From Rhodanobacter sp. (GTDB taxonomy: Bacteria > Pseudomonadota > Gammaproteobacteria > Xanthomonadales > Rhodanobacteraceae), in contig DASRUB010000091.1 in NCBI GenBank assembly GCA_035655635.1, positions 1 through 56,934 of the forward strand: a stretch of DNA of 56,934 nt, read 5' to 3'. This document shows, in pieces, positions 1 to 34,480 of the stretch. The notes beneath the pieces are model-generated. The model was not told where the DNA came from and did no database searches. It saw only the letters and a program-made list of their open reading frames with translations. Both the position numbers and the translations under genes were made by a program. How positions within the stretch are numbered: position 1 is the stretch's first letter; the number at the start of each line of letters is the position of its first letter.

Positions 1-1518
1 GACCAGTACCGTACCAACCGAACGGCGCCCTTGCTGTTCTCACCGGCCGATCCGCACCTGCTGTATTACGGGATGAACGTCCTGTTCAAGACCACCAATG
101 GCGGCCAGAGCTGGCAGAAGATCAGCCCCGACCTGTCACGCCCCAACCCGGGTTTGCCATCCACGCTGGGAGTGTTCGGCACCCGCGAGAACCCACTCGA
201 TCACCGCGGCGTGATCTACAGCATCGGGCCTTCATTCAAGAACGTGGATACGATCTGGGCCGGTACCGATGACGGTCTCATCTGGATCACCCGTGACGCT
301 GGCAAGCATTGGGACAATGTCACGCCCAAAGGCATGACGTCGTGGAGCAAGGTGTCAATGCTGGTCGCCTCGCATTTCGACGACCAGACCGCCTACGCCG
401 CCGTCAACCGCTTCCGCCTGGACGATCTGAAACCGTACATCTACCGCACCCACGATGGCGGCAAAACCTGGAAGCTGATCGTCAATGGCTTGCCCGACAA
501 TGCCTCGGCGAACGTGGTGCGCGAGGATCCCGAACAAAAGGGATTGCTGATCGCGGGCACGGAACGCGCCGTGTGGTACTCGGCGGATGATGGCGATCAC
601 TGGCGGTCGCTGCAGCTCAACCTACCACAGACCTCGATGCGCGACCTGGTGATCCACGACAACGATGTGGTGCTGGGCACGCATGGCCGTTCGTTCTGGA
701 TCCTCGATGACATCACCCCGCTGCGCCAGATCGCAGGTGCCGAGGCGGCCGATCCAGGCTATCTCTACAAACCGGCCGCTGCCTACCAGGTTTTGCGCAA
801 CACCTATACCGACACCCAGATGCCTAAAGAGACACCCGCAGGGCAGAATCCGCCCGACGGCGCAATCCTCGACTACTACCTGAAAGCAGACGCCCCGGGA
901 CCGTTGACATTGGAAGTCCGCGATGCGGCCGGCAGACTCGCGTTCCACTTGTCCTCAGCAGATAAGCCCAAGCCGGTTGATCCCGACATACTCAACTTCC
1001 CGGCCTATTGGCTGCGTCCGCCTCTCGCACTCCCGTCGAACGCAGGCATGCACCGCATCGTCTGGGACCTGAACTATCCGGCGCCGAAATCGTTGCGCCC
1101 GAGCGCACCGATTTCAGTGATCCTGCATGACACGCCACTTGGACCGTCGGGACCCTCGGCCGTCCCTGGTGAATACACGGTCAAGCTCACTGTGGGCGGA
1201 AAGACCTATACGCAACCTCTGACGCTGCGCATGGATCCGCGAGTCGATACACCAGTCGCAGGGCTCGCCCAGCAATTTGACCTGGCGACCCAGCTCGTCG
1301 ATGACATGAACCGTACGTTTGGCGCCTTGCAGGAAGCAAACGCCAAGGGCAGCAAGGTTGACGCCTTGCGGAAACTGAATTCGGAGCTTGGCGAAGCCTA
1401 CAGCTCCATTTATGGCGGGCAATATGGTGCCGTGTCGACATTGGCGTCACCAACGATGCAGCAGATGTCGACGGTCGCCGAGCTGCATCGCCGGGTGCTC
1501 GCCGCGCTTGGCCACTGA
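1..1518 (+). CDS. VPS10/BNR-repeat beta-propeller protein (glycosyl-hydrolase-like), 5'-truncated by window edge
   Basis: Frame open from base 1 (DQYRTNRTAPLLFS...). Multiple Asp-box motifs (TTNGGQSW, TRDAGKHW, THDGGKTW, SADDGDHW), WAGTDDG and GTHGRSFWILDD motifs, C-terminal Ig-like and helical tail shared with the two paralogs. Confidence 0.85.
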   Translation, partial: DQYRTNRTAPLLFSPADPHLLYYGMNVLFKTTNGGQSWQKISPDLSRPNPGLPSTLGVFGTRENPLDHRGVIYSIGPSFKNVDTIWAGTDDGLIWITRDAGKHWDNVTPKGMTSWSKVSMLVASHFDDQTAYAAVNRFRLDDLKPYIYRTHDGGKTWKLIVNGLPDNASANVVREDPEQKGLLIAGTERAVWYSADDGDHWRSLQLNLPQTSMRDLVIHDNDVVLGTHGRSFWILDDITPLRQIAGAEAADPGYLYKPAAAYQVLRNTYTDTQMPKETPAGQNPPDGAILDYYLKADAPGPLTLEVRDAAGRLAFHLSSADKPKPVDPDILNFPAYWLRPPLALPSNAGMHRIVWDLNYPAPKSLRPSAPISVILHDTPLGPSGPSAVPGEYTVKLTVGGKTYTQPLTLRMDPRVDTPVAGLAQQFDLATQLVDDMNRTFGALQEANAKGSKVDALRKLNSELGEAYSSIYGGQYGAVSTLASPTMQQMSTVAELHRRVLAALGH

Positions 1519-1723
1519 TCGCAACGCGTTGCGCGATGTTCCCCCTGTCTGGATACGCAGGAAAACGGTCTGCTGCTTGTCGTATCACGGCAGAACCGGT
1601 CCATGCGGCAGCATGCATCGGTGTGCAGCGACTGGTTGTTGCCTGCGGCTGGCATGCAACAACGCAGCAGACTGATTTCCGTGTGGGCCAATCTTTGTAC
1701 CTAATTTCACCGGGAGAGCTCAC

Positions 1724-4700
1724 ATGATCATTGGAGCCGGCGCACGGCACCTGCTGCAGATTGCATCCGTCGCCGTCATGGTTGCCGCGATGTTTCCGGT
1801 GACCGTCAGTGCCCAGACGTACGCCCCAAGCCTGCTTTCCGGCCTGCAGTGGCGCTTGCTCGGACCGTTCCGCGCCGGTCGCACCGTGGCCGTGGCGGGG
1901 GTCCCCAGCCAGCCCAACGTTTTCTATTCCGGAGCGGTCGACGGTGGTGTATGGAAGACCGACAACGCGGGCATCACCTGGGACCCGATTTTCGATAGCG
2001 CACCGATTGCCTCGATTGGCGCGATCGCGGTGGCGCCGTCCAATCCCGATATCGTCTATGTGGGCACGGGCGAGTCCGATCCGCGCTCGCAGATTTCCTA
2101 TGGCGACGGCATGTACAGGTCCACCGATGCGGGCAAGAGCTGGACGCATATCGGCCTGGACAAGAGCATGCACATAAGCCACATCATCGTGGACCCGGCC
2201 AATCCGAATCGCCTGTTTGTTGCAGTACTTGGAAACCTGTATGCCGCCAATCCGGAGCGGGGAATCTACCGCTCGACCGACGGTGGCAGCTCGTGGGAAA
2301 AGGTGCTGTACAAGAGTCCGGATGTTGGCGCGATCGATATCACGTTCGCGCCGGACAACGCCCAGGTGATTTATGCGGCGCTGTGGGCAACACGCCGTCC
2401 GCCGTGGAATGTGTACCCGCCCGCGAATGGTCCTGGCAGCGGGGTCTACAAATCCACCGATGGCGGTGTGAACTGGACCCACCTCACCAACGGCTTGCCG
2501 ACCGCCGGTTTGGGCAAGATCGGACTGGCCGTGGCACCGACCAACAGCAATCGTGTCTACGCCATTCTTGATGCCGACCAGGGTGGTCTCTATCGCTCTG
2601 ATGATGCGGGCGCCAGCTGGAAACTGGCCGATGGCGAGGCACGTATCTGGGGCCGTGGGTGGTACTTCGATCGCGTGACGGTGGATCCGAAAAACCAGGA
2701 CAAGCTCTACATCATGAACACGTCGGTTTACCGTTCGACCGACGGCGGCAGCAGTTTCGACGCGATCAAGGGTACAGCCGGTGGGGATGATTATCATCGC
2801 CTGTGGGTCAATCCCGACGATCCGGACCGGATGGCCCTCAGCAGTGACCAAGGCACCATCGTGAGTGTGAACGGCACGCGCAACTGGAGCGATTGGCACA
2901 ATCAGCCGACTGGCCAGTTCTATCACGTGATCGCCGACAACCGTGATCCGTTCTGGGTGTACGGCGCGCAGCAGGATAGCGGCCCTTGGGGTGTAGTCAC
3001 GGACGTGCCCGACGGACGCATCACCTATCGTCAGTGGGCCCGTACCTGCACCGGAGGTGAAAGCGACATGTTCGCCATGGATCCGGACAGCAAGGCGGAC
3101 CTCTACGCCACTACGCTGCTCTACGATCTCAATGACAACACGCTGACGCGCTGCAACCAGATCACCGGCGTGAAGAAAGTGGTGACGCCGTGGCAGGCCT
3201 ATCCCGGCGTCGCATTCCGGCATACGTGGACCTTGCCGACGGTATTCTCGCTGGCGGAAGGGCACGCGCTGTACTTCTCCAACCAGTTCATGTTCAAGAG
3301 CACCGACAAAGGGGACCATTGGCAAAAGATCAGCCCGGATCTGACACGGGCACATCCTGGTGTCCCGGCCAATCTCGACCCGGCCACCGCGGCCGATACC
3401 AGCTACCTGCAAAAGACCGGGGACTCGCACTGGGGTGTGATCTACGCGATTGCGCCTTCGCCGCTGCAGGCGGACACGGTATGGGCCGGCACCGATGACG
3501 GCCAGATCTGGATTACCCGTGACAGCGGGGGTCACTGGCAAAACGTCACGCCACGCGAGGTCACCGCCTGGAGCAAGGTGATCATGATGGACGCCTCGCA
3601 TTTCGATGCAAATACCGCTTACGCGGCGATTGATCGGCATCGCCTCAACGACTTCACGCCACACGTGTTGCGCACGCGTGATGGGGGCAAGACTTGGCAG
3701 GAAGTGACCAAGGGCCTTCCTGCCCATGCTTATGTACAGGCGGTCCGGCAGGACCCCGATCGCGAGGGCCTGCTGTTTGCCGGTACGTCCATCGGTGTCT
3801 ACGTATCCTTCGATGAAGGCAACCAGTGGCAGTCATTGCGACTGAACTTGCCGGTGGTGGAAATTCGGGATTTCGCCTTCCATGGCAATTCCGTTGCGAT
3901 CGCCACCTTCGGCCGTTCGCTGTGGATTCTGGACGACCTGAACCCGTTGCATCAGCTCGACAGCGCCATTGCCCAGTCGAACGTCCACCTGTTCAAGCCG
4001 GAATTGGCGATCCTCAGACCGGGCGACGACCGGCCCAACCGTGACACGAACCTGGTCGTAGCCACCAACCTGACTCCACTCGACGTTGCGTCGGGTGCGC
4101 CGCGTATGAAGGGTGCACTGCTGGACTACTACCTGAAGTCCGCGACCAAAGCTCCACTCACGCTGGACATCCTCGATGCAGGCGGCAAGGTCATCCGGCA
4201 CTACTCGAGTGACACGAAGTACCCCGAGGTAGATCCGAAGAGCATGAACGTACCGGCGATTTGGCGAAGCAATCCGCCGCCGTTACCGGCTGCGGCCGGC
4301 ATGCACCGCTTCAGTTGGGATCTGCGCGCCATGGCCACGGGAGCGCACGGCTTCGGCGGCCACCGGGTCCTGCCCGGGGAGTACACGGTCAAATTGACCG
4401 TGGACGGAAACAGCTATACCCAGCCATTGACAGTCGAACAGCATGCCAGCACCCGACAGGATCCGGCCGCACTTCAGGCGCAAACCCGGATGATGCAGCA
4501 GATCATTGGTCTGCAAACCGAGGTGGCCAAGGCACAAATCGATGTGGCACATTTGCGCACGCAACTTCAGAGTCTGCAACGGCAGGCGTCAGGCAAGAAG
4601 GGAATCGCCGCTGACATCGCTGTCGTGGACAAGAACGCACGCGAAATCCAAGGCCATGCACCTCCGCCGCTCCCGGATACGACCGGCGTGGGTGATGCGG

Positions 4701-4939
4701 CGCCGGCCACGAGCAGTTTGATGGGACTCGCACAGATTTTGGGTGGAATCTCGAAAACAACCCAGGAGAGCAGCGGCGCGCCCACCGCTGCAAGAGTCTC
4801 CGGCCTGGACAAGGTGCGACAAATCGTCAGCACGACCCTTGCTCAATTGGACCAGTTCAAGACCAAGGATGTGGCGCAACTGAACATCAGGCTGCGCCGT
4901 GCCGGACTACCGGAGGTCGACCGAGCCCACTGGCGTTGA
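1724..4939 (+). CDS. Secreted VPS10/BNR-repeat beta-propeller protein
   Basis: Signal peptide (..FPVTVSA-Q), WRLLGPFRAGR N-terminal motif, many S/T-x-D-x-G-x-x-W Asp boxes, GGDDYHRLW, RBS GGGAGAG upstream. Confidence 0.9.
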   Translation: MIIGAGARHLLQIASVAVMVAAMFPVTVSAQTYAPSLLSGLQWRLLGPFRAGRTVAVAGVPSQPNVFYSGAVDGGVWKTDNAGITWDPIFDSAPIASIGAIAVAPSNPDIVYVGTGESDPRSQISYGDGMYRSTDAGKSWTHIGLDKSMHISHIIVDPANPNRLFVAVLGNLYAANPERGIYRSTDGGSSWEKVLYKSPDVGAIDITFAPDNAQVIYAALWATRRPPWNVYPPANGPGSGVYKSTDGGVNWTHLTNGLPTAGLGKIGLAVAPTNSNRVYAILDADQGGLYRSDDAGASWKLADGEARIWGRGWYFDRVTVDPKNQDKLYIMNTSVYRSTDGGSSFDAIKGTAGGDDYHRLWVNPDDPDRMALSSDQGTIVSVNGTRNWSDWHNQPTGQFYHVIADNRDPFWVYGAQQDSGPWGVVTDVPDGRITYRQWARTCTGGESDMFAMDPDSKADLYATTLLYDLNDNTLTRCNQITGVKKVVTPWQAYPGVAFRHTWTLPTVFSLAEGHALYFSNQFMFKSTDKGDHWQKISPDLTRAHPGVPANLDPATAADTSYLQKTGDSHWGVIYAIAPSPLQADTVWAGTDDGQIWITRDSGGHWQNVTPREVTAWSKVIMMDASHFDANTAYAAIDRHRLNDFTPHVLRTRDGGKTWQEVTKGLPAHAYVQAVRQDPDREGLLFAGTSIGVYVSFDEGNQWQSLRLNLPVVEIRDFAFHGNSVAIATFGRSLWILDDLNPLHQLDSAIAQSNVHLFKPELAILRPGDDRPNRDTNLVVATNLTPLDVASGAPRMKGALLDYYLKSATKAPLTLDILDAGGKVIRHYSSDTKYPEVDPKSMNVPAIWRSNPPPLPAAAGMHRFSWDLRAMATGAHGFGGHRVLPGEYTVKLTVDGNSYTQPLTVEQHASTRQDPAALQAQTRMMQQIIGLQTEVAKAQIDVAHLRTQLQSLQRQASGKKGIAADIAVVDKNAREIQGHAPPPLPDTTGVGDAAPATSSLMGLAQILGGISKTTQESSGAPTAARVSGLDKVRQIVSTTLAQLDQFKTKDVAQLNIRLRRAGLPEVDRAHWR

Positions 4940-5261: not shown

Positions 5262-5304
5262 CCGCAGTGCATTGACGGCTCTTGCGGGCGTCAATGCACT
5301 GCGG
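5262..5304. terminator. Perfect 16-bp-stem hairpin between convergent genes (possible bidirectional terminator)
   Basis: CCGCAGTGCATTGACG-N11-CGTCAATGCACTGCGG; no U tract, so function is inferred from position. Confidence 0.5.
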
Positions 5305-5334: not shown

Positions 5335-5356
5335 AACGGGCGCACTGACCCGTTTT
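5335..5356 (-). terminator. Short hairpin directly after the M28 stop codon
   Basis: AAACGGG-N8-CCCGTTT overlapping the TAA. Confidence 0.4.
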
Positions 5357-7655
5357 ACGACTTGTTGAGGAGTGCCGTAGCCTTTTCAATCTGCGCCCGA
5401 TAGCCGTCGATGACCTTGGCCGTGACGCCAGCGTACTGGTTCGCCTCATCCCAGCGGCGCGACTCGAGAGCTTCACGCACGCCCGGCAGGGTCTTCACTC
5501 CATAGCCGGTGAGCATGCCAGGTGCATAGACCATGTGCTTGAACCAGGTCCGCCCAGGAAGGCCCGCGGGATCGGTCAACGACTCCTCCATGCGTCCGAT
5601 CAACTCATTCAGCTGCCGCTCCTGCTCCTTCGGCATCTGGTAGCCGGCATCCTGCACCTTCTTGTAGGCCGCGTCGTAGGCTTGCATGCTCTGCGCCAGC
5701 TTCTGGATCGACTCATCCAGCGGCTTCAGGTCAATTTGCGGCATGTCGGATTCCCGCACCGGGGGAGCTACCGGATCCATCGGATCGGCCGCGAGCTTGA
5801 ACGCGTCGCTGTCCAGCAACTGGTGCTGATGCTCGGTGGCCTCACGCGTCTTGGCGACGAGTTGATGCAACTCGCCCATGTACTCGGTGAGCTTGGTGCT
5901 GAAGTCGCTGAAACGCATCGGCAAGACGTTTGCATCCGCCATCCGCATGACCAGTCGACCAACGACCTTGGCCAGGGTCACTCCGTACTCGAATTTAGGA
6001 TCACTGAAGCGCGCGTAGTGGTCGAACGTGTCGTAAGCGGAGTGATAGACGCCGCCTCCACCTTCGCCGCCAAAACCGACACTAAGCGAGGCAATGCCAA
6101 GGTGCTGCAGGAACGGGGTGAAGTCGGACCCTGATCCCAGGGCGCTGATCGGCAAGTCGCCGCCTGAGGCAGCAGCCTTGGCCATGGCCTTGGCTTCGGC
6201 AGACCCGCCTTCGTGGCCAGCGGACATCAAGTGCGCACGCAGTCGCTTCTCGACGCTCACGTTGGTTTCTGGATCGGTAACGTCTGCTGCCACCTGGTTG
6301 ACCAGATGTTGCAGCGAGTGGCTGCCGCCAGCTCCAAGAAAACCGCGCGAGGTGCCGTCCGTATTGATGTACAGGACCGCCTTCTGGCTCAGTTCCTTGG
6401 CATGCGTCTCGACCCATTCGGTCGAACCGAGCAGGCCGGGCTCTTCACCATCCCAACTGCCGTAGACGATCGTGCGTTGCGGCCGCCAGCCCTTCTTGTA
6501 CATGGCGCCCATCACCTTCGCCTCTTCCAGCATGGCCACATGGCTGGACAGTGGGTCTTCCGCGCCAAACACCCAACCGTCTCGATGGTTGCCACGTATG
6601 ATCCACTGATCGGGCATCGTCGAGCCCTTGAGCTTGGCGATCACGTCATAGATTGTCTTCTGACTCCAGTCCGATTCGACCACCATGTGCACCTTGGCCG
6701 GGCCGCTACCCATGTGGTAGGCCATCGGCAGCGAACCGCGCCAGCTGTCTGGGGCGATCGGTCCACCAAGCGCCTCAAGCAGTGGCGTGGCATCACCATA
6801 GGAAATCGGCAGCACGGGGATCTTCAGGATCGTCGCGGCATCCTTGATCGCAAGACGCTTGGCATCCTTGGTGGAGCCGACATTCGGCGTCAGCGGGTCA
6901 CCCGGATATAGCTGCATCTTGGCGACTGAACCACGTTGCACACCTTGGTCCGGACGCCAGCTGCCCTTGGGATAGACATCACCCTTGAAGTAGCCGTCTT
7001 CATGTGGGTCGGAGTAGATGAGGCAACCTATCGCGCCGTGCTCCTGCGCGAGTTCGGGCTTGAGACCGCGCCAGCCGCCACCGTAGCGCGTGATGACGAT
7101 CTTGCCGCGCACGTCGATGCCACGCCTGGCCAATTCGGCGTAATCGTCCGGCAATCCGTAATTGGCGTAGACCAGTTCGCCAGTCACATCGCCATCGCCG
7201 CCGTAAGCGTTGTAGGGCGGCAACACATTCTTGGTGATGTCGGTTGACGGATCGCCCGGAATTGGCGTCTCGTGCAACACGGCGTCATAGTGAGTTGGTG
7301 CGATCAGCTGCAGCTGCACCTTTTTCGGGGTGGGATACAACACGCTGAAAGTCTCGATATGTGCGTCCCAGCCAAACTCCTTGAACTTCGCGAGCACGAA
7401 CTCGGCATTCGCCTTGTCATGCGGCGAACCCACCTGGTTCGGCTCCGAGGACATGCTCTTCAGCCAGCTCTTGATGTCCGACGACTGCAGCTGGGCGTCA
7501 AAGCTTTTTTCCAGGCTTTGCTGCTTGGCCGCGGTGTTCGCGCTGAATCCGAGCATGTCACCCGCTGACTGATCACCGTTGGCCGTGGAAGTCGCACCCA
7601 ACGCAGCCACCAGGCAAGCCACCAGAAGCAGGGGCTTGGTCGTCATTCGAATCAT
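5355..7655 (-). CDS. M28 glutamate carboxypeptidase II-like peptidase (PA domain and transferrin-receptor-like dimerisation domain), secreted
   Basis: Signal peptide; GNHRDGW, GAEDP, WDGEE, GSGSDF and YHSAYDT motifs; PA-domain YANYG...RG; C-terminal WFKHMVYAPG. Confidence 0.92.
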   Translation of the reverse strand: MIRMTTKPLLLVACLVAALGATSTANGDQSAGDMLGFSANTAAKQQSLEKSFDAQLQSSDIKSWLKSMSSEPNQVGSPHDKANAEFVLAKFKEFGWDAHIETFSVLYPTPKKVQLQLIAPTHYDAVLHETPIPGDPSTDITKNVLPPYNAYGGDGDVTGELVYANYGLPDDYAELARRGIDVRGKIVITRYGGGWRGLKPELAQEHGAIGCLIYSDPHEDGYFKGDVYPKGSWRPDQGVQRGSVAKMQLYPGDPLTPNVGSTKDAKRLAIKDAATILKIPVLPISYGDATPLLEALGGPIAPDSWRGSLPMAYHMGSGPAKVHMVVESDWSQKTIYDVIAKLKGSTMPDQWIIRGNHRDGWVFGAEDPLSSHVAMLEEAKVMGAMYKKGWRPQRTIVYGSWDGEEPGLLGSTEWVETHAKELSQKAVLYINTDGTSRGFLGAGGSHSLQHLVNQVAADVTDPETNVSVEKRLRAHLMSAGHEGGSAEAKAMAKAAASGGDLPISALGSGSDFTPFLQHLGIASLSVGFGGEGGGGVYHSAYDTFDHYARFSDPKFEYGVTLAKVVGRLVMRMADANVLPMRFSDFSTKLTEYMGELHQLVAKTREATEHQHQLLDSDAFKLAADPMDPVAPPVRESDMPQIDLKPLDESIQKLAQSMQAYDAAYKKVQDAGYQMPKEQERQLNELIGRMEESLTDPAGLPGRTWFKHMVYAPGMLTGYGVKTLPGVREALESRRWDEANQYAGVTAKVIDGYRAQIEKATALLNKS

Positions 7656-8391: not shown

Positions 8392-9795
8392 ATGAAACGA
8401 CCTGCCGATTCCACAGGATTCGACAAACACCTCTATGCGGCAGTCTTTGCGACTGCCGCTTTTTTTATGCCCATGTTTGCCGTCGCACAGACGGCCACGC
8501 CGTTGGTCGTGCCCATGAGCGACACCGAGCAGGCCGATCCGCAGTTGCCGGCGATTCTGCCGCTTCGGGATCGCGCCAAAGTCGTCAACCAAATTCTGGC
8601 CGAGCGCCTGGATACGGTCGTGCCGAAACTGATGCGCGACAACGACGCCAGCATGTGGATCCTGATGGCACGGGAGTATTTCGAAGAACCCGTCGTGGCG
8701 ACCATGCTTGATGCGGAAAGCCTGCATGCCCGCCGCCGCACCATCCTGATTTTCTACAATCCCGGCAACGGCCAGCCAATCGAGAGGCTGACGGTCAGTC
8801 GCTACGGTGTTGGCGGATTGTTCAAGCCGGCCTGGGATCCCGACAAGCAGCCCGACCAGTGGAAAGCGGTAGCTGATATCGTCGAGGCGCGTGATCCGGC
8901 CAACATCGCGATCAACACCTCCAGCATGTTCGCATTCGCGGACGGGATGACTCTGAGCCAACACAAGGAGATGATGGCGGCATTGCCGCAAAAGTATCGC
9001 TCTCGTGTCGTCTCCTCCGAGCCTCTGGCCATCGGTTGGCTCGAAACACGCACGCCGACCGAGCTGCGAATCTATCCGGGCATCGTGCGCGCCGCCCACG
9101 CGCTGATTGCCGAAGCGTTCTCGCGCAAGGTGATCACCCCGGGCAAGACCACCACCGACGACGTCGTCTGGTATTACCGCCAGCGCATGGCGAATCTCGG
9201 CATCGATACATGGTTCCAGCCGTCCATCGCGGTCCAGCGCAAAGGGGCGAAGAAGATGCTCGATGGCGACACGGTGATCCAGCCGGGCGACATGCTGTGG
9301 ACCGACTTCGGCATCACCTACCTGCGCCTCAACACGGACACGCAGCACCTTGCGTATGTGCTCAAGCCGGGTGAGACCGATGCGCCGGCCGGTCTGCGCG
9401 CTGGCCTGAAGGCAGTCAATGGGGTGCAGGATGCCTTGCTCTCCTCGTTCAAGGCCGGTGCCAGCGGCAACTCGATACTCGCTGCTGCACGCAAAAAGGC
9501 GATCGCCAACGGACTCGACCCGTCGATCTACTCGCACCCGACCGGCTATCACGGTCATGCCGCTGGATCGGCGATCGGCATGTGGGACAACCAGAACGGT
9601 GACGATCACGGCGAATATCCGGTGCATGCCAATACAACGTGGTCGATCGAACTGGTCGCCTACAAGGGTGTCCCGGAATGGGACGGTGAAAAGGCCGAGT
9701 TCCGCCAGGAAGAAGATGCCTGGTTCGATGGCGAGAAAGTCCATTTCCTGGACGGTCGGCAAACCAGGTTCACCCTGATTCCATCGGACTCCTGA
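8392..9795 (+). CDS. M24 family metallopeptidase (Xaa-Pro aminopeptidase-like), secreted
   Basis: Pita-bread metal ligands: TDFG..NTD, HPTGYHGH, SIEL, RQEED. Hydrophobic N-terminus ending AVA-Q. Start placed at ATG 8392 after GGGG. Confidence 0.85.
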   Translation: MKRPADSTGFDKHLYAAVFATAAFFMPMFAVAQTATPLVVPMSDTEQADPQLPAILPLRDRAKVVNQILAERLDTVVPKLMRDNDASMWILMAREYFEEPVVATMLDAESLHARRRTILIFYNPGNGQPIERLTVSRYGVGGLFKPAWDPDKQPDQWKAVADIVEARDPANIAINTSSMFAFADGMTLSQHKEMMAALPQKYRSRVVSSEPLAIGWLETRTPTELRIYPGIVRAAHALIAEAFSRKVITPGKTTTDDVVWYYRQRMANLGIDTWFQPSIAVQRKGAKKMLDGDTVIQPGDMLWTDFGITYLRLNTDTQHLAYVLKPGETDAPAGLRAGLKAVNGVQDALLSSFKAGASGNSILAAARKKAIANGLDPSIYSHPTGYHGHAAGSAIGMWDNQNGDDHGEYPVHANTTWSIELVAYKGVPEWDGEKAEFRQEEDAWFDGEKVHFLDGRQTRFTLIPSDS

Positions 9796-22018: not shown

Positions 22019-22411
22019 TGGCGATCAACTCGCGGAGGCTGTATGGAGAAGTACCCTTGTCTCAAACCATAGCAGTGTAGAAACCGTGTAGCCAGCCGGT
22101 GCTCATGCGTGCGCCGCGACACCGCCATACCGACCATAAAAGAACGCAGGGTGCAAAAGGCGTGTGTACGCCTTTGCGGATCAATGTCCAGGCCGAGGTG
22201 GGTCGTGCAAGGCGTTACCAGTGTGTCTTCAATCAACGCAAGGTTTGCGCGTACGCCTGACCATCGTAGGCTCACCATCGAAGCTCGCACTGGTTGGGCT
22301 CGATGTAGCGGTAGACGGTCAGCATCCGGGTAATGGGTGTATGGCAGAATGACCCGACGGCTGCCAATTACCCAGCAGATTCATCCCGTACATTCGAGGA
22401 GATGGCCCATC

Positions 22412-22915
22412 GTGGTTCGTGTACGTAACGTCTTGTCGTCCGGGTGCTGGATGCTGATATCCGCTTTCACATGGCCAGTGTTTGCCAGCCAACCGGTCAG
22501 AACGCCGCCTCCGATAAACGCCGTGGTGACGAATTTCTATTACAACAATTTGCCGGCCGCGAAAGAGTGGTATGTGGATGAGATGGGCTTTCCGGTCATC
22601 TACGACGATGGCTGGGTGGTCATCGTGGAAGTCGGCAAGGGCATGCAAATCGCGCTGGTCGATGCATCCAGGGGCGCGCTCCAGGCTGTAAAGAACAAGG
22701 GCGCCATGCTGGCGATTGAAACTGGCGCACTGGAACAATGGCATGACTACGTGAGCAAGATCGGCGGCATCGAATGGTATCCATATAACGGTGAGGATCC
22801 GCGACATTTCAAACATGGAATCCGGACACACGGTGACTATGAGGAGTTTCGCGTGCTCGATCCAGGTGGATACATCATTGAATTCTATCGATGGAAGTCC
22901 GGCAAAACCCCATGA
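22412..22915 (+). CDS. VOC/glyoxalase-fold protein with probable signal peptide
   Basis: FYYNNLPAAKEWYVDEMGF and FRVLDPGGYIIEF motifs; GTG start after GAGGAG; hydrophobic N-terminus ending VFA-S. Confidence 0.75.
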   Translation: MVRVRNVLSSGCWMLISAFTWPVFASQPVRTPPPINAVVTNFYYNNLPAAKEWYVDEMGFPVIYDDGWVVIVEVGKGMQIALVDASRGALQAVKNKGAMLAIETGALEQWHDYVSKIGGIEWYPYNGEDPRHFKHGIRTHGDYEEFRVLDPGGYIIEFYRWKSGKTP

Positions 22916-23199
22916 GGCAACGGCTCTGCGTTTAACCCGACGCGATGCTGCCATCAGCATTGATGTCGCCACCATCGCTGCGTGTCCTTCCGGGTGACCG
23001 GGCAAATGGCGAGGAACGCGGTAGTACCACCACGCGTCCGATCCAGCAGGCTTGTGCGTCGCCCTGATCCTCAAGTGCTGTCGCTGGTGTAGCTGAGTCA
23101 GCGACCGTGGAGTGGGCGTGACAGGTGGTAAGCGACAACTGTCAATAATGGGTACGCTCGCGGACCGTCCGCGCTGTGCATCCCTACAAGGAGGCCGAA

Positions 23200-24934: not shown

Positions 24935-26716
24935 TCACTTGTGCGCTGCTGTGTTCGCTATCCATCGGTCCAGCTTCCGGTCGAGAATGGCCAGTGGCAT
25001 ACTGCCGCCGAGCAGAATCTGGTCGTGGAACTCGCGTATGTTGAAGCGTGGCCCAAGCGCGTTCGATGCCTTGCTTCGAAGCGCTTCGATGTCCAGCTGG
25101 CCTACCTTGTAGGACAGGGCCTGCGCCGGATAGGCCACATAGCGCTCGACCTCGACTGCAGCCTGTGCATGGGTCATCGATGAATGGTCCATCATCCAGG
25201 TGATCCCCTGTTCGGTGCTCCAGCCCATGGCATGGATACCGGTATCGATCACCAGGCGGTTGGCACGCAGGATCATGTCCTGCAGATATCCGTAGTACTG
25301 CCAGGGGTCTTCATACAGCCCGAGCTCCTTGCCCAGGGATTCGCAATAAAGCGCCCACCCCTCGCCATAGGCGTTGAAAAAGCCGAGCCGCCGGAACGAG
25401 GGCAGTCCCTTGATCTCCAGAGCGAGAGAGGTCTGAAAATGATGGCCGGGATAGGTTTCGTGCAGCATCGTCGGTATCACGATGAACTTGTCCTTGATCC
25501 CCGGCGCATACGGGTTGATCCACAAGATGCCGGGCCGCGAACCGTCCGCGGCCGCCTGCTGATAATCGCCATTGCCTCGATAGACCTTGGCAGAAGCCTC
25601 CGGAATCGACTTGACCTCCAGCTTTGCCGTGGGCATGACGTCGAACAGCTTGGGCAGTGTCGGCAGGATGCGCGCCAGGGCAGCGTCGTAGGCCGGCACC
25701 ACTTCGTCCGGATTTTCAAAATGGAGAGCCTTGTCTGAGCGCACGTGTGCCAGGAATTCGGCCAGCGAGCCGTGAAAGCCAACCGTCTTCATCGCATCCT
25801 GCAATTCCCTCGTGATCTCCCTGACTTGCGCAAGACCCAGCTGGTGAATCTGCGTCGGGGTCATCTCAGTCGTGGTGTTCACCCTGATGTCGTATGCATA
25901 GAGTGCCGCGCCGCCTGGCAACGCCCCGAGGCCTGGCTTCGCACTGGCGTGCGGCAGGTACTCGTCGTGCATGTACGAATAGAGCTTTCGGTAGGCCGGC
26001 TCGATCACATCGAGGATCTTCGCTGCATACGCCTTCGTCAGGCGTTGCCGATCAGCCACTGGAATGCCGGCAGGAAACTTCATGATCGGCTGCCAGAAGA
26101 CAGTTTTCTCGGGTGCCGACCCGAAGTACTGCTGCAGCTGCGGCAGGACGCGCTCGACCACGATGCGCGGCAGCACCACACCCTTGCTTACTCCTTCTTG
26201 CATGCGCGCAATGGCGTCGTCCGTCCACCGAGCGTAGCCATCGGCCAACTTCAGCGCATTGTCGTAGTCCGCGATCGTCTTGAAGTTGTAGTCACCCGAG
26301 CCCGATTGGTCGAGCGCGAATTCCATATGGTGCCCCGTGAACTGGTTGATCGGCAGCATGCGTGCGGTCACGTAGACGCCGGTACCGTAATACGAAAGCT
26401 TTTGCGCCAACTGGTAACTCAGCATCTCGTAGCTGATGCGGTCCTGCTCGGGCAGCGTTGCTGGATCGAAATTCACGAGAGACGCCTGATAGTGCCTCAG
26501 CATCGCGGTCGCGTCGTGATCCCAGGAGTCCTCCAAGGCTTCGTTGGACCTTGCTTCCAGCGTCGACCAGTCCTGCCAGTAAGCGGCGTACAGGCGATCG
26601 AGTCCCTGTTGTTCGTGCGAAACGGAAGCGGACGCCGCGAACGTCCAGGCGTTGATTGGAATGAGCCCAAGCGCCAGGACCACGGGCAGCAAGACGGCAC
26701 GAGCCACGTTCGTCAT
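24935..26716 (-). CDS. DUF885 family protein (putative zinc metallopeptidase), secreted
   Basis: HETYPGHHFQ, EGWALYCE, RLVIDTGIH, EVERY..PAQALSYKVG; RBS AGAGGA before ATG. Confidence 0.9.
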   Translation of the reverse strand: MTNVARAVLLPVVLALGLIPINAWTFAASASVSHEQQGLDRLYAAYWQDWSTLEARSNEALEDSWDHDATAMLRHYQASLVNFDPATLPEQDRISYEMLSYQLAQKLSYYGTGVYVTARMLPINQFTGHHMEFALDQSGSGDYNFKTIADYDNALKLADGYARWTDDAIARMQEGVSKGVVLPRIVVERVLPQLQQYFGSAPEKTVFWQPIMKFPAGIPVADRQRLTKAYAAKILDVIEPAYRKLYSYMHDEYLPHASAKPGLGALPGGAALYAYDIRVNTTTEMTPTQIHQLGLAQVREITRELQDAMKTVGFHGSLAEFLAHVRSDKALHFENPDEVVPAYDAALARILPTLPKLFDVMPTAKLEVKSIPEASAKVYRGNGDYQQAAADGSRPGILWINPYAPGIKDKFIVIPTMLHETYPGHHFQTSLALEIKGLPSFRRLGFFNAYGEGWALYCESLGKELGLYEDPWQYYGYLQDMILRANRLVIDTGIHAMGWSTEQGITWMMDHSSMTHAQAAVEVERYVAYPAQALSYKVGQLDIEALRSKASNALGPRFNIREFHDQILLGGSMPLAILDRKLDRWIANTAAHK

Positions 26717-27236: not shown

Positions 27237-29468
27237 ATGACCCTGCAATATCGACTGCTGTTCGGCTGCGTCGCGCTGTACGGCCTCGTCATTTCCCTTC
27301 CGGCAAACGCCCTCGAACCGGCAGCAGCCAGTGTGGCCACGCCCCGAGCGTTGACGATCGAGCGGCTGTATAGCCTGCCCTGGATCATCGGCACCGCTCC
27401 GCAGGACCCCCAGTGGTCACCCGACAGCCGTCACTTGGCGTTTCTGTGGAACAACGAGGGGACAAACTTCATGGACGTCTGGATGACAGACGCCACGGGA
27501 GGCAAGCCGGTACGCGTGACCCGCATGCCGCGCCCGGACAGTCCGGCAAACCCGGGCACCGACATGGCCAAGCTCGAACAGGCCGAGCGCGCCGAGAATG
27601 ATCACGGCGTTTCGGAAGTCGTCTGGGCGCCCGATGGTCGGCGCCTCGTGTTCAACCTGCATGGCTCCCTGTACCAGGTGTTGCCAGGCGAGCCCCCACA
27701 GCGAATCACCGCAGCGGCTGCGGCTGCCTCGGACCTCGCCGTGTCGCCAAGCGCCAACGCCATGGCGTATCTGTCATCCGGCGAGCTGTGGATCGTGGAC
27801 TTTGCCGGGGCTCGACCCACGCTGCACCGGGTTCTTGCCCCAGGTAGACGCGACGTCGGCGTGGAGTCCTTCGTCTGGTCCGGTGATGGGAAGCGCCTGG
27901 CCTTCGTGGAAGCCGATTCCTCGCAGGTGCCGACGCGCGGTCTTCCGGATTATCTTGGCAAGGAAACCCGGCTGGTTGAAGTAAAGCGGCCGTTTCCCGG
28001 CGAGCCGTCGCCATCCCGGCGCCTCGGTGTGATCGCCTCGACGGGAGGTCAGGTGCAGTGGATGGATCTGGGCAACAATCCGCTGGACCAGATATTCAGC
28101 GTGCGCTGGTCACCGGACAACGAGCGTCTGCTCGTGGACAAAAGCGACTTGTATGTCAAGGACCGGCGCCTGCTGCTGCTTGATCCGGACACCGGGCGGT
28201 CACAGCTTCTGCTGCGCGAAGCCGACCCGCACAACGTGAGCGCGGACTGGTGGGCGGACTGGGCTCCGGATGGCCAGGGCGTGTATTTCATCTCCGATCG
28301 CGACAACGACTACCAGGTGTATTACCAGGCAGTTGCCGGTGGCGTCCCGAAGGCCATCACTGCCGGCGACTGGGCAGTATTCTCGGCGACGGTGTCGAAA
28401 ACCGCGCACGCCCTGTTCGTGGTCACCAACGCCGGCAATGCCGAATCGCGCCGGTTGTATCGCGTGCCGCTGGCCGGTGGGGCACCACAACCGGTTACCC
28501 CGGCTGAAGGAGCACATCACCCGCTGGTTTCACCAGACGGGAAGTATCTGGCCGATCTTTATTCAAACGACATGACACCTCCGGACCTGTATCTGCAAGG
28601 TACGGCCAGTACGGACGCGACAGCGGCCCGCGTTCACCGGGTCACGCACTCGCCCCTGCCGGAATTCAGCCAGTACCACTGGCTCAGGCCGAAATACGTC
28701 GTCTTCAGAAACGTCAATGACGGCACCGCACTCCATGCCCGGCTTACCCTCCCGCCGAACTTCAATCCGAACAAGAAATATCCGGTGATCCTCGGCTCCG
28801 TCTACAGCAACACCGTGCACAATGAATGGGGTGGTCGGGTGTTCCATCCGACCTGGGGGCTGGACCAGTTCCTCGCCCAGCAAGGCTTCGTGATCATGAA
28901 CGTCGATATCAGCGGCAGCGCGGGCTACGGCAAGGCGTTCCGTCAGCGCATCGGTGAGGACTACGGTGGCATCGATGTGGACGACTTGTTCAGCGCCACG
29001 CGTTATCTCGTCGCGCAGGGCTATGCCGACCCGGAGCGCATCGGCATCTGGGGGAGCAGCTACGGAGGACTGTTGACCGCAATGTCGATGTTCCGCTATC
29101 CGGAGGTGTACAAGGCCGGAGTGGCTGCGGCTCCCGCAACCAGCTTGTTCCATGCCCAGACCGGAGAGATGCAGGTGATGATGGCGCCGCAGGGTCATGA
29201 AGCACAGTACGCAAAATCCTCGGCGTTCCTGCGCTCCGGCGATCTCAAGGGCCATCTCATGCTGCTCCATGGCATGCGTGACGATGTCGTACTGTTCAAG
29301 GATTCCGTGACGCTGTACCAGCGCTTGATCCTGCAAGGCAAGAATGTTGACTTGGTGGTGCTGCCGAACGCCCCGCACGGCTGGGATACCGAGGGAACGG
29401 CACAGACCCGCTACGGCTACCGGAAGCTCTACGAGTATTTCGAGCGCTGGCTCGGCAAGTCACCCTGA
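27237..29468 (+). CDS. S9B dipeptidyl-peptidase IV-like serine peptidase, secreted
   Basis: WSPD propeller repeats; GIWGSSYGG nucleophile; HGMRDD and APHG complete the triad; signal peptide ending ANA-L. Confidence 0.9.
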   Translation: MTLQYRLLFGCVALYGLVISLPANALEPAAASVATPRALTIERLYSLPWIIGTAPQDPQWSPDSRHLAFLWNNEGTNFMDVWMTDATGGKPVRVTRMPRPDSPANPGTDMAKLEQAERAENDHGVSEVVWAPDGRRLVFNLHGSLYQVLPGEPPQRITAAAAAASDLAVSPSANAMAYLSSGELWIVDFAGARPTLHRVLAPGRRDVGVESFVWSGDGKRLAFVEADSSQVPTRGLPDYLGKETRLVEVKRPFPGEPSPSRRLGVIASTGGQVQWMDLGNNPLDQIFSVRWSPDNERLLVDKSDLYVKDRRLLLLDPDTGRSQLLLREADPHNVSADWWADWAPDGQGVYFISDRDNDYQVYYQAVAGGVPKAITAGDWAVFSATVSKTAHALFVVTNAGNAESRRLYRVPLAGGAPQPVTPAEGAHHPLVSPDGKYLADLYSNDMTPPDLYLQGTASTDATAARVHRVTHSPLPEFSQYHWLRPKYVVFRNVNDGTALHARLTLPPNFNPNKKYPVILGSVYSNTVHNEWGGRVFHPTWGLDQFLAQQGFVIMNVDISGSAGYGKAFRQRIGEDYGGIDVDDLFSATRYLVAQGYADPERIGIWGSSYGGLLTAMSMFRYPEVYKAGVAAAPATSLFHAQTGEMQVMMAPQGHEAQYAKSSAFLRSGDLKGHLMLLHGMRDDVVLFKDSVTLYQRLILQGKNVDLVVLPNAPHGWDTEGTAQTRYGYRKLYEYFERWLGKSP

Positions 29469-29886: not shown

Positions 29887-30399
29887 TTATCGTTGCGATG
29901 GCGCGATGGCAGCCACCGCTTCGATTTCCACCATGTATTCAGGCGCGGCCAGCTTGCTGACCTCGACCAGGGTGCTGGCTGGTGGTGCATCGGCATTGAT
30001 GTACTGCGCACGAACCGAACGAACCTCATCGGCTCTGGACATGTCGGTGACATAGAAATTCAGCTTGACGACGTCTTTGAACGTTCCACCGGCTGCAGCC
30101 AAGGCCAGCCGGATATTTTCAAATACCTGTTTGGCCTGCGCGTGCATGTCTCCAGGCCCCACCACCTTGCCTTTCGCATCGTTGCCAACCAATCCGGAGA
30201 TATAGATCAGCCGGCTCCCTGGCGGAATCTCCACCAGCTTGGACGCGATCCGCGGCGCGCTGGACAGCGTCGGCGGATTGATGAAGCGAATCGAATCGTT
30301 CGCCGACTGGTTCCGCGCATGGGCAGGCGCCGCGGCCACCGCAACGAGACCGATCATGGCGGCAAAAGCGAATGCATGCAGGAAATGGTGTGTCGTCAT
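29887..30399 (-). CDS. Rid (YjgF/RidA superfamily) protein with signal peptide
   Basis: IYISG, QAKQVFENI..L.AAG...DVVKLNFYV, PASTLVEV, VEIEAVA; N-terminal hydrophobic stretch ending AHA-R. Confidence 0.88.
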   Translation of the reverse strand: MTTHHFLHAFAFAAMIGLVAVAAAPAHARNQSANDSIRFINPPTLSSAPRIASKLVEIPPGSRLIYISGLVGNDAKGKVVGPGDMHAQAKQVFENIRLALAAAGGTFKDVVKLNFYVTDMSRADEVRSVRAQYINADAPPASTLVEVSKLAAPEYMVEIEAVAAIAPSQR

Positions 30400-30632: not shown

Positions 30633-32363
30633 TCAGTCCTTGACCAGCCCGTCCGTCAATTCGGTTTCGATCAGCTGCACGGGCATGATGCCCGCTGCCC
30701 AGATCTTGTTCATCACGTTCTTCATCACGAACGGACGTCCAGCCTGCTCGTCTTCAAAGGCAACCTGGGCAATGAGATGATCAAGCTGGAGTTTGCCAAT
30801 GACGTAACTGGGCCCATAACCGGGCTGGCGAGCGTAAAGCAACTGCTCGAATCCAACCAGCTTGCTGGTGGCATCCGACCAGTGCCGCGGCGTCCATTGG
30901 CCCTGGAACCTGCCAGCTTTCGCCAGATCCCATTCGTTTGACTGCACATGCAACGAAGCGAGACCGCGGGCCGCGCGATTCGCCAGAGCAATCCAGACGA
31001 GTTCCCTGCCATGCGGAATATTGTCGTACAACCCCGCTTGCATCACGATTTCCTCAAACGCCGTGGCAAAACCTTCGGAGCGGACGTCGAACATGTTGAA
31101 CAGGGGAGGCGCGCGCCGGATCGGGCTGGCATTAGGCTCATGCTTGAGGCGGGCAAGGTCGAGCCAGTGTGTCGAGTGCGAGTCCAGTGGCAACGGATCG
31201 AGCGCTGTCATGTGGGTGAAGAAGTTGCGCTGGGCCGGTGGTGTGTATGTCCCGGCCTGTGCCAGGAGGGCCGGGCGCAGATACGGTTCGTCGCCGGCAA
31301 ACCCGGTCTTTTGCAGGAAATCCATCAGATAGGCCGCCTTGGCTTGCGCCATCTGGTCATACGCGGCCGGGTCGGTGATTTCCTTGATCGGCGGCAGGTC
31401 GCGGTTGCGCAACTCTTCCAGCTTCAGTGACGCAAGAGAGCGGTCCAGTTCACGCTGCAGCAGGATCTTCTGCGCATTCCAGTCATACGGAATGAGCTGG
31501 ACATTGGCGGCGTACCAGTTGTAATTCTCCTTGCCAACGCCGACCGGGCCGGTTTTCTTTGGTGCCTCAGCGGCCACCCATGCGGCAAATTCGTCGCTCG
31601 CCGTCCTGGCATTGCGAATGGCGGTCAGCAACCGTGGACTGGCGCCCTTGATGTTCGCTGGAACCGCACCGTCCAGCGTGCGCATGACCAGCGTGCCGGC
31701 CGCCAGTGCAGACAATGCCTCGCTCTGTTCCTTGAAAGCGCGATCACCATACAGCCACAATCCCCTGGCGTTGCTGTCCTTGAGGTTGATCCTGGCCGCC
31801 TTCAGGTTCGCCGGAACCGCAGCCAGCATGGCCGTGAGCTTCTTTTCATCCGAGGCGTTGAGCGGATATTTGAAGTCGTAAAGGTTGATATTGGGATAGG
31901 CCAGCGGACCCTCCTGGACCGGCACGTCACTGCGGTCGGCCAGCACGGTCGCGTAGAAGCCCGGGTCACGCGCCCACGGCATCAAGACGCGGAAATCGAA
32001 GTCGAGGCCGTTCATCTCCGCCTGGACCAGCTTGTAATCGATCAGTGCGCCCTTGGGCCAGCGCGAAGTGTGGATCGCCTGCAGGCGTGCGCGGTATTGT
32101 GGAAATTCTGCCTTCTTCGCCGCAATCGCCGCGACGGAGTAGTCGGGTTTGAAGTCGACGGTCAGCGGAAGCACGAATTTCCGCCAATCCGCGAACAGCT
32201 TCGTGAGCTCGGCATAGTTGGCGGGGTAGCTGGCGGGATCCGATACCGATGCCGATGCCGATGCCGATAGCGGGCGGGGTGGTGTCGATGGCGACGAAAT
32301 GGCTGCAGCCGGAATGATGCAAGCGGCAAGAGCCAGGGCAACGCTGCAAGCAAGATGTTTCAT
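30633..32363 (-). CDS. Divergent DUF885-like secreted protein
   Basis: Signal peptide; PWARDPGFY, SEGFATAFEE, RAARG, QPGYGPSYVIGK resemble DUF885 C-terminal motifs. Confidence 0.65.
   Translation of the reverse strand: MKHLACSVALALAACIIPAAAISSPSTPPRPLSASASASVSDPASYPANYAELTKLFADWRKFVLPLTVDFKPDYSVAAIAAKKAEFPQYRARLQAIHTSRWPKGALIDYKLVQAEMNGLDFDFRVLMPWARDPGFYATVLADRSDVPVQEGPLAYPNINLYDFKYPLNASDEKKLTAMLAAVPANLKAARINLKDSNARGLWLYGDRAFKEQSEALSALAAGTLVMRTLDGAVPANIKGASPRLLTAIRNARTASDEFAAWVAAEAPKKTGPVGVGKENYNWYAANVQLIPYDWNAQKILLQRELDRSLASLKLEELRNRDLPPIKEITDPAAYDQMAQAKAAYLMDFLQKTGFAGDEPYLRPALLAQAGTYTPPAQRNFFTHMTALDPLPLDSHSTHWLDLARLKHEPNASPIRRAPPLFNMFDVRSEGFATAFEEIVMQAGLYDNIPHGRELVWIALANRAARGLASLHVQSNEWDLAKAGRFQGQWTPRHWSDATSKLVGFEQLLYARQPGYGPSYVIGKLQLDHLIAQVAFEDEQAGRPFVMKNVMNKIWAAGIMPVQLIETELTDGLVKD
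32240..32268. repeat. Hexanucleotide tandem repeat (CCGATR)x~5 encoding a Ser-Ala linker
   Basis: ccgata ccgatg ccgatg ccgatg ccgat; encodes SASASASVS just after the signal peptide. Confidence 0.8.
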
Positions 32364-33147: not shown

Positions 33148-33178
33148 CCATGGCGCGCTAACGGCAACATATCCGCGA

Positions 33179-34480
33179 CTACGAGAACGGATGTTCGAGC
33201 GAAGGACTCTGCGGCGTGAACAGGCTCGCGCCGTTTTCAGTGATGTACATGTCGTCTTCCAGGCGCACGCCGAACTCGCCGGGAATGTAAATGCCCGGCT
33301 CGTCGCTGAAGGTCATGTTCCTTTCCAACTTGCGCTTGTTGCCGCGCACCAGGTAATACCACTCGTGGCCATTCATGCCGATGCCATGGCCGAGGCGATG
33401 GCCAAAATACTTGTAGTCCGGGCCATAACCATTGTCGACGATGACCTTGCGTGCAGCCGCGTCTATCGATTCCATGGCTGCCCCGGGATGCGCAGCCTTC
33501 AGGGCTGCCGATTGCGCCTTGAGCACGATGTCGAAGACCTTTTTCATCTTGTCACTGGGCTTGCCCAGGACGAAGGTGCGGCTGATGTCGCTGTGGTAGC
33601 CCTCCACCATGGCGTCGCCGTCGATCAACAGCGGCGTGCCTTCGGCGAGACGCTGAGGCACGATCGAACCATGCGGCAACGCCGTGTATTTGCCAACGTT
33701 GATGCTTGCGCCACCGGGCACGCCCAGACGTTCATAGGCTGCGGCCAGCCAATCGCGCACGGTGTCTTGCGTGATGCCCGGCTGCAGACCCAGATAGATG
33801 GCGTGATATGCCGCCAGCGTCGCATCGTTGGCAACCTGCATCAGTGCCAGTTCGGCGGGGCTCTTGACTGAGCGGCAGCCGCCGGTGACCGGTATCGCTG
33901 GGACCAGTTTCGCATGCGGCAATGCCTCGGCAATGCGCGACGCGCGGAAATATGGCACTTGCTCTTCAATACCAAGAGTCCCGGTCGAAGCATGCAGGTC
34001 GGACATCACCTGCGCCAGCCGTTGGTAGGGATCTTCGTGTTCTTGCCAGATCCGGACATCATGGCCGAATTTGATCTGCTCCAGCGCTCTGCTCTGTTCA
34101 AAGGCAGGGGTGATGTAGATCGGATCTCCCGACTTGGGCAAGACAAATCCCATCAGGCGTTCGCTGGTGAACCAGTGCATGCCGGTGAAATATTCCATCG
34201 AACTGCCACCGTCCATGTACACGGCGTTGATCTTGTTGTCCGCCATGAGCCGCTGCGCCCTGGCCAGGCGCGCCTTGCGTTCGGCGTCGGTGATCGGCAC
34301 GATCTTCGAAGTCACCGACTTCAGCGCCAAAATGGACGGCGGCAGCTTGACGGCTCCGGCGGCAGGCTCGGCTGCCAAAACCTTGCCGCCGAGCATGACC
34401 GCCGGCAGCACCGCCATGCCCAGTGCAGATGTCTTCAGAAAATTACGGCGATTTGAGTGCATCGAGTCGTTCATTTCCAC
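33179..34480 (-). CDS. M24 Xaa-Pro dipeptidase-like peptidase with Tat signal
   Basis: SNRRNFLK twin-arginine motif; IDG..YHSDISRT, HRLGHGIGMNGHE, SDEPGIY, GVRLEDD. Confidence 0.92.
   Translation of the reverse strand: MEMNDSMHSNRRNFLKTSALGMAVLPAVMLGGKVLAAEPAAGAVKLPPSILALKSVTSKIVPITDAERKARLARAQRLMADNKINAVYMDGGSSMEYFTGMHWFTSERLMGFVLPKSGDPIYITPAFEQSRALEQIKFGHDVRIWQEHEDPYQRLAQVMSDLHASTGTLGIEEQVPYFRASRIAEALPHAKLVPAIPVTGGCRSVKSPAELALMQVANDATLAAYHAIYLGLQPGITQDTVRDWLAAAYERLGVPGGASINVGKYTALPHGSIVPQRLAEGTPLLIDGDAMVEGYHSDISRTFVLGKPSDKMKKVFDIVLKAQSAALKAAHPGAAMESIDAAARKVIVDNGYGPDYKYFGHRLGHGIGMNGHEWYYLVRGNKRKLERNMTFSDEPGIYIPGEFGVRLEDDMYITENGASLFTPQSPSLEHPFS

Follow-up and report, generated by a model that had tools for sequence, protein, structure and literature searches.

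A Rhodanobacter locus of exported peptidases and predicted GH74-type double propellers suggests peptides as likely substrates of a large propeller family

The stretch of DNA analyzed here (the window) is 56,934 nucleotides long and comprises the entire contig C91 (DASRUB010000091.1) of a Rhodanobacter sp. genome (G000; GCA_035655635.1), an assembly of 441 contigs with a marker-based completeness of 100% and a contamination of 4.6%. By Pfam and gene calls, window positions 1-34480 hold 18 genes, three of which match PF15902/BNR and encode large propeller proteins, named V1, V2 and V3 here; members of this family carry the automatic names glycosyl hydrolase, GH74 or VPS10. Around them lie an M28 peptidase with PA and TfR-dimer domains, two M24 peptidases, an S9B, an M20-like and two DUF885 genes, a PF00756 esterase, a VOC gene, a stand-alone Rid gene and an APC permease. 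The original prediction had described a cluster of about 34 kb, made of mostly exported peptide-processing genes with three propellers; the genes that it listed were confirmed by Pfam, and the locus proved to be larger. It had left unnamed two aldo-keto reductases (one of them fused to Rid), a 116-amino acid gene and an MFS transporter. The findings below suggest that the propeller family likely works on peptides rather than on plant polysaccharides. The features of positions 1-34480 are as follows, export being judged throughout from hydropathy and the A-x-A pattern alone.

1..1518, forward strand: V1, the 3' half of a double-propeller gene, whose 5' half is C110:3490-5139; Asn at the position of the first GH74 Asp
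1724..4939, forward strand: V2, 1071 amino acids; signal peptide, 7+7 Asp-box propeller, Ig-like sandwich and helical bundle; its key residues are Val72 (at the position of the first GH74 Asp), Glu117 and Asp418
5355..7655, reverse strand: M28 peptidase with PA and TfR-dimer domains; metal ligands intact; exported by the heuristic
8392..9795, forward strand: divergent M24 peptidase (M24a); ligands intact; exported; start codon set by eye
9823..11538, forward strand: PF00756 esterase-family hydrolase, exported; GxSxG motif
11786..12865, reverse strand: aldo-keto reductase; missing at the same locus in sister genome G002
12862..13212, reverse strand: 116-amino acid gene without Pfam match; missing in G002
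13212..14510, reverse strand: MFS transporter; missing in G002
15242..16726, forward strand: APC amino-acid permease, by Pfam
16736..18211, forward strand: aldo-keto reductase-Rid fusion
18635..22018, reverse strand: V3, a double-propeller paralog of 1127 amino acids; the two GH74 catalytic positions are both Asp, and Glu117 is replaced by Ala
22337..22915, forward strand: VOC/glyoxalase-fold protein, probably exported; start uncertain
23176..24507, forward strand: M20-like protein, nearest to 7ljh among solved structures; three metal ligands (His, Asp, His) substituted
24935..26716, reverse strand: DUF885a, exported; HExxxGHH and EGWA motifs
27237..29468, forward strand: S9B dipeptidyl-peptidase-IV-like enzyme, exported; triad intact
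29887..30399, reverse strand: Rid-family protein with signal peptide
30633..32363, reverse strand: DUF885b, divergent; a 52% identical homolog follows a V2-clade gene in locus L043
33179..34474, reverse strand: M24 Xaa-Pro dipeptidase-like enzyme; twin-arginine signal

By this heuristic, 12 of the 17 genes that start inside the window look exported, one of them through the twin-arginine signal, and the signal peptide of V1 is encoded on contig C110. Catalytic motifs are intact in six hydrolases, namely the M28, both M24 enzymes, S9B, DUF885a and the esterase; three metal ligands are lost from the M20-like gene, and DUF885b is without the HExxxGHH motif. No solved relative was found for the PF00756 esterase or M24a. 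The families concerned are clustered, as 7 of the 18 genes come from families that total only 36 members among the 3358 called genes (hypergeometric P 2.6e-10, with families picked post hoc); at an assumed peptidase rate of 3-5%, 7 of 18 remains unlikely genome-wide (0.002-0.05), while 5 of 18 does not.

The locus extends beyond the contig. End overlaps of 141 bp connect contigs C385 (reversed), C110 and C91, and both sister genomes, G019 and G002, have assemblies that span these joins. The overlaps complete V1 and bring in five further propeller paralogs, together with a TonB-dependent receptor, a TPR-sulfotransferase, a TPR-2OG oxygenase and a partial second APC permease; all nine family matches of the genome (eight genes) fall inside the joined locus of about 63 kb. 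The receptor, for which a search upstream of the window had been advised, is C385:12939-15917, identified via a 96-97% identical G019 ortholog and via homologs, and the original reading of the region as a peptide and amino-acid utilization locus is supported. No glycoside hydrolase (GH) family matched within the window by Pfam, in agreement with the claim that other carbohydrate-active enzymes (CAZymes) are missing; the companion claim, of no sugar transporter, is weakened by the MFS gene, which has a weak Sugar_tr match (2e-13) and whose best NCBIfam match, a D-galactonate transporter, is far below cut-off. The 63-kb locus is also without sugar kinases, isomerases, other GHs and ABC transporters, and the GH3 and GH92 genes of the genome are all on other contigs. 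Its island character is seen in a mixed gene orientation and in a median GC content at third codon positions (GC3) of 0.759 (n=24) vs 0.833 (n=1823). Scans for promoters (positions 1-19000), terminators and repeats returned nothing above chance or paralog similarity.

The propellers had been called sortilin-like, and this label did not survive. First of all, a profile of 116 family members placed GH74 entries of the PDB at the top (1e-32) and sortilin far lower (1e-11). The AlphaFold model of mature V2 (pLDDT 89.9, pTM 0.90) has 14 blades, arranged as two 7-bladed units and followed by an Ig-like sandwich and a helical bundle. With this model as query, the best 18 Foldseek entries were all GH74, and sortilin came at rank 48 with TM scores of 0.14/0.20 and a root-mean-square deviation (rmsd) of 18.7; a sortilin fold was thus ruled out by the blade count and by Foldseek. 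In VIA, the V2 model matched 6p2m with a Z of 30.2 and an rmsd of 6.0 over 606 aligned residues, and residues 20-356 fit 7-bladed propellers at an rmsd of 2.6; sortilin was not among the 50 VIA rows, which by itself proves nothing. The C-terminal domains of V2 found generic Ig-like and helical-bundle matches only (best Z 11.9, rmsd 2.4, 124 aligned), and the C-terminus is without a cysteine-rich 10CC-like region or membrane anchor. In PMC2716378, GH74 is defined by 7+7 blades and Vps10 by 10, and the modeled propellers are predicted to be GH74-type 7+7 tandem double propellers, not 10-bladed sortilins. The PF15902 match spans only positions 3-113 of 446; the sortilin label is a by-product of the shared Asp-box repeats, and once it fails, the argument drawn from the receptor function of sortilin falls with it.

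Active-site residues were counted in the 402 family members that cover both positions 72 and 418 of V2. The first GH74 catalytic Asp aligns to Val72, a placement fixed by the 2cn2/2cn3 alignments, in which that Asp is the mutated residue. Asp occurs at this position in 7 of the 402, including V3 and its paralog, and not in the remaining 395; judged by the alignment, therefore, propellers outside the V3 clade fail a defining GH74 residue. At position 418, an acid is found in 400 of 402 (Asp in 345, Glu in 55). This residue sits at the matching turn of blade 8 and is the probable second GH74 catalytic site, matched by eye through a second-propeller motif that we take to be characteristic of GH74; a profile of the motif region retrieved no GH74. 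All seven members with Asp72 are without an acid at position 117, where 367 of the 395 others have one. A comparison of a GH74 Asp pair with a sortilin tunnel had been suggested as a check, and it yielded a predicted GH74 fold, with the first Asp of the pair in the V3 clade only. Outside the Asp-boxes, conservation of 87-100% is found for R53, E117, R121, R179, D355, H358 and D375, and likewise for Y400, Q417, D/E418, E/D446, R499 and R731, while W228, Y400 and a few others are the only conserved aromatics. These non-Asp-box residues map to strand starts and b-c turns of the V2 model, a face that, by analogy, would line a GH74-type cleft, and they point to a binding or catalytic surface unlike that of GH74.

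The family is large, with 8,469 clusters at 50% identity (E<=1e-30), and Acidobacteriota, Gemmatimonadota, Bacteroidota and the gammaproteobacterial order of Rhodanobacter are rich in it. It was found in 10 of 24 congeners and in 11 of 15 genera searched, and 29 genomes picked for having it contain 2 to 28 matches each. In a midpoint-rooted FastTree phylogeny of 145 top hits, from which no donor is claimed, the eight G000 paralogs are spread over six lineages; among the sampled sequences from other genera, those closest to V1, V2 and V3 are from Acidobacteriota. One of the eight, at C110:392-3421, is V1-like (71-75% identical) and is missing in G002 and G019; in genome G023, tandem V1-like genes precede V2. 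A '1 TGA inside' flag on the V2 orthologs of G002 and G019 was traced to the natural stop, and selenocysteine was rejected. A literature search, with subscription journals and supplements outside its coverage, found no functional study of the family. Bacterial Sortilin-Vps10 domains appear in two literature tables; the one in PMC9936825 includes a Flavobacterium protein with Sortilin-Vps10 and protease-associated domains, a likeness by domain labels alone.

Domain fusions were surveyed as well. A search for long homologs (at least 1286 residues) found 376 among 7995 candidates scored, and Pfam domains were tallied in the 120 listed, to which the following counts refer. Peptidases of five families are fused to the propeller in nine clusters (C69, M19, S10 in four, M1 in two, and S9A), related clusters not being independent; an amidohydrolase annotated as N-acyl-D-amino-acid deacylase is fused in eight, an amino-acid binding protein or symporter in two, and CAZymes in two. 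PDZ domains occur in 40, and the tally contains one laminin-G lectin-like domain and no carbohydrate-binding module (CBM). The domains were confirmed in 27 rescanned proteins, and the M1, S10 and S9A partners that were checked keep their catalytic motifs. The PDZ insert lies at V2 residue 286 in all six proteins checked. In a subfamily (P0216-P0267), a tandem PDZ of about 230-350 amino acids is inserted in blade 5 of the first propeller, and proteins of 1400-1750 amino acids, such as P0004 and P0153, apparently contain two copies of the double propeller.

Neighborhoods of homologs were compared across phyla in 78 of 79 loci (L053, with a bad gene call, was left out), scanning the 267 genes within two places of a propeller and leaving out 307 middle and 272 far neighbors; the controls were 251 genes in 27 regions from 27 of the same genomes, without L144, which holds a propeller fragment. 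Counts are at E<=1e-12; a later one-sided rescan of the near genes also revealed an ABC-M1 fusion, a further S10 and a TonB receptor, which are left out of the counts. Peptidases made up 15 of the 267 near genes against 4 of 251 controls (Fisher p 0.018), and TonB receptors 13 against 1 (p 0.002); since the controls are contiguous blocks, these p-values overstate. In matched genomes, the receptor enrichment remained (p=0.001). A single glycosidase (GH127) was near a propeller, and the controls had one glycosidase and one lyase; in 20 same-order regions, the 111 near genes included S8, S9, a housekeeping A24 and two S12-like genes and no glycosidase. These counts support the view that the propeller family avoids glycosidase neighborhoods, and they indicate a modest peptidase enrichment across it. 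In G023, 7 of 15 loci examined have an M16, S9, M20, M14, S10 or gamma-glutamyltransferase gene within two genes, and an arrangement of receptor, peptidase, propeller and permease recurs; in G043, two S10, an M28 and an M14 lie within about 15 kb of the V2-clade gene.

Two other recurrent neighbors were observed. In one propeller subclade, the gene immediately upstream, which in many cases overlaps the start of the propeller gene, encodes an unannotated exported protein of about 250 amino acids that is LolA-like by language-model features (L022:12036-12794; also in L025, L027, L032, L034, L038, L118, L119, L157, L161, L163 and L164); it is a candidate partner of that subclade, and BLAST found no match in G000. 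In three genomes, propellers also adjoin TPR-sulfotransferase genes, most of which have a TonB receptor beside them (window 35095-36564; C385:8459-10306; L027:7623-12227; L148:1788-6163).

Upstream of the locus, on contig C182, lies a hydroxyproline region; the gap of about 1.8 kb that separates it from C385 in G000 is bridged in G002 and G019. The region contains a proline-racemase-family gene, DAAO-type oxidoreductases, a DHDPS-family gene and an aldehyde dehydrogenase, a set that matches the 4-hydroxyproline pathway in PMC4113996, as well as an AraC/PAS regulator gene and another receptor. Regulons comparable to the locus, joining hydroxyproline enzymes to a receptor, a permease and proline peptidases, are described in section 11 of PMC5343134. 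An acidobacterial genome (G042, Acidobacteriaceae; loci L043 and L187) has the hydroxyproline operon in the same order at 44-59% identity, together with an APC permease, a GntR gene beside the operon, TonB receptors, a GH127, a V2-clade propeller and the 52% identical DUF885b. With this module, the V2 clade is linked to hydroxyproline substrates in two phyla; the two modules may be one inherited cassette. A family-wide link was not supported: among the propeller matches listed, the racemase lies within 20 kb of a propeller in 2 of the 15 genomes having it, against a rough chance expectation of about 1. A full racemase is present in 5 of 25 genomes of the genus, four of them with propellers. 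GH127 was not found in G000, and PF01752 (M9 collagenase) gave no match, its control likewise matching nowhere.

Other features were recorded in passing. Rid proteins are known chiefly as cytoplasmic and stand-alone, and the signal-peptide Rid (29887-30399) and the reductase-Rid fusion (16736-18211) are both unusual forms. The reductase, 116-amino acid and MFS block (11786-14510) is present in G019 and missing at the same locus in G002, and is thus a separate module. Further along the window are a sigma-54 activator with an aldehyde dehydrogenase, PQQ alcohol dehydrogenase and cytochrome c cluster (37000-44802); a further S9 peptidase, likewise exported, with a gene resembling di-haem cytochrome c peroxidases and an ECF sigma factor accompanied by a Ser/Thr kinase-TPR gene (44830-52415); and an aromatic amino-acid lyase of about 640-660 amino acids beside histidyl-tRNA synthetase (54062-56056), of which a 78% identical homolog sits among hut genes adjoining a propeller in G023 (L177). 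The final kilobase (55976-56934) is 91% identical to C34:1-969, and a paralog of the M28 gene, 64-69% identical, lies on C156/C317; the assembly may thus contain mixed strains or a duplication.

Taken together, the locus is probably an accessory island that feeds the cell on peptides and combines exported peptidases and amino-acid permeases with eight propellers. That the propellers themselves act on peptides, by cutting or by binding, we hold to be fairly probable. As to how they act, we rank the cutting of peptides by remodeled hydrolases first, followed by glycosidase action on glycopeptides, non-catalytic capture, and mere co-occurrence, and even the first is put forward tentatively. According to it, TonB-dependent receptors would bring oligopeptides, probably including proline- and hydroxyproline-rich ones, into the periplasm, where the propellers, presumably periplasmic and co-regulated with their neighbors, would hold them in the cleft that separates their 7-bladed halves. 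Cutting would then be performed by Asp418 together with another acid, which is Glu117 in most members and Asp72 in the V3 clade, with His358, Asp355 and several arginines assisting; the products would go to S9B, the two M24s, M28 and DUF885a for trimming, uptake of the amino acids would be through APC permeases, and the adjacent hydroxyproline operon and the Rid proteins would handle breakdown. A broader proposal, and a more doubtful one, is that the large family represents a new enzyme class that cleaves peptides or amides on a GH74 clamshell by means of the acid pair Asp418/Glu117 (Asp72 in the V3 clade), and that six of its lineages are gathered here.

Several observations weigh against peptide cutting. 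To our knowledge, no peptidase has a GH74 fold. The exchange of Asp72 and Glu117 is confined to approximately one clade and thus represents one or two events, and both GH74 positions are still Asp in V3 and its paralog. Read-through artefacts may account for some of the fusions, which are known from one sequence each; moreover, GH127 is fused in P0225 and adjacent in L043, and P0154 carries a CE15-like/SGNH fusion. Most homolog neighborhoods consist of unrelated genes, including those of several other congeners. The peptidase enrichment in matched genomes (5/104 vs 4/240) was not significant (p=0.14); the proposed test of peptidases against CAZymes showed few glycosidases and, in the overall comparison, a modest excess of peptidases.

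The propellers could instead be glycosidases that act on glycopeptides, such as arabinosylated hydroxyproline-rich plant wall proteins, and clear the sugars for exopeptidases, which we regard as rather unlikely. The GH74 fold, the conserved acid at 418 and the two Asps of V3 would suit such a role. GH127 acts on arabinosyl-hydroxyproline; its grouping with the hydroxyproline operon, a V2-clade propeller and DUF885b in G042, and its fusion in P0225, support this explanation. Against these stand a genome that is complete by markers (in 441 contigs) and in which GH127 was not found, 63 kb in which no sugar kinase, isomerase or other GH lies, long homologs listed without a CBM, and the near-chance racemase count.

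Less probable still is the non-catalytic capture of imported peptides, passed on to the peptidases by a GH74 rather than a sortilin scaffold. The loss of the first GH74 Asp and the interchange of Asp and Glu at 418 (345 vs 55) speak for it, as do an arginine- and acid-rich conserved face suited to peptide termini, and fusions with many unrelated hydrolases and a solute-binding protein. Nonetheless, no ABC transporter in the locus could take the cargo, the motivating sortilin analogy fails, and the conserved Asp/His/Gln/Tyr/Glu set and the Asp72/Glu117 exchange look catalytic. Of the original claim that the propellers capture peptides rather than hydrolyze, capture is possible, while the acids and His of the cleft face and the V3 Asp pair fit catalysis at least as well. 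Finally, it is improbable that the propellers do something else and lie beside peptidases only because exported accessory genes pile up near TonB receptors, since, despite the island features (GC3, mixed orientation, 10/24 congeners), a receptor association stronger than the peptidase one and many loci with unrelated neighbors, the propeller is fused to peptidases of five families and carries PDZ inserts, the order of receptor, peptidase, propeller and permease recurs in G023, and V2 is found with DUF885b and the hydroxyproline module in two phyla.

Should the family prove to act on peptides or glycopeptides, claims from genomes that these bacteria of soil and sediment degrade plant polysaccharides are inflated, and their scavenging of nitrogen has in part been overlooked. 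Peptidase activity on a GH74 fold would represent a new catalytic type. The genes linked to the propellers point to proline- and hydroxyproline-rich substrates, and the natural difference at the site between V2 (Glu117) and V3 (Asp72) makes the locus suited to a direct test.

Among known systems, the propellers are closest to GH74 xyloglucanases (6p2m, 6p2k, 6mgl, 2cn2, 7kn8), which are the best PDB profile matches and share, by the V2 model, tandem 7-bladed Asp-box propellers over about 600 aligned residues and, by the match made by eye, probably an acid at the second catalytic site. They differ in sequence (14-19% identity), in geometry (rmsd 5-6 Å over both halves), in the first catalytic Asp, missing in 395/402, and in the extra Ig-like and helical domains. 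In PMC8245568, the true GH74 of the Xanthomonas xyloglucan locus adjoins GH31, GH35 and GH95, neighbors not found here (no GH in the window; 1/267 and 0/111 among homolog neighbors). Vps10-domain receptors (sortilin, SorCS2) share the Asp-box repeats, hence PF15902 and the weak profile match (1e-11), and have a single 10-bladed propeller against 14 blades in the V2 model, and a 10CC region, transmembrane helix and cytoplasmic tail in place of the Ig-like sandwich and helical bundle. For the M20-like gene only, the best solved relative is the poly(aspartic acid) hydrolase 7ljh (E 2e-24 over 366 residues); of the ligands, only the Glu pair is kept, and, with three replaced, the protein is probably inactive or altered. 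As for the locus as a whole, the HypR-type regulons in PMC5343134 are alike, by gene content, in an epimerase, a DAAO-family oxidase, a DHDPS-family deaminase and an aldehyde dehydrogenase, accompanied by a TonB receptor, an APC permease and proline peptidases. Their regulator, HypR, is of the GntR family, which is also found at the G042 operon, whereas that of G000 has an AraC/PAS gene, known through its ortholog; and to this familiar set the Rhodanobacter locus adds eight propeller genes.

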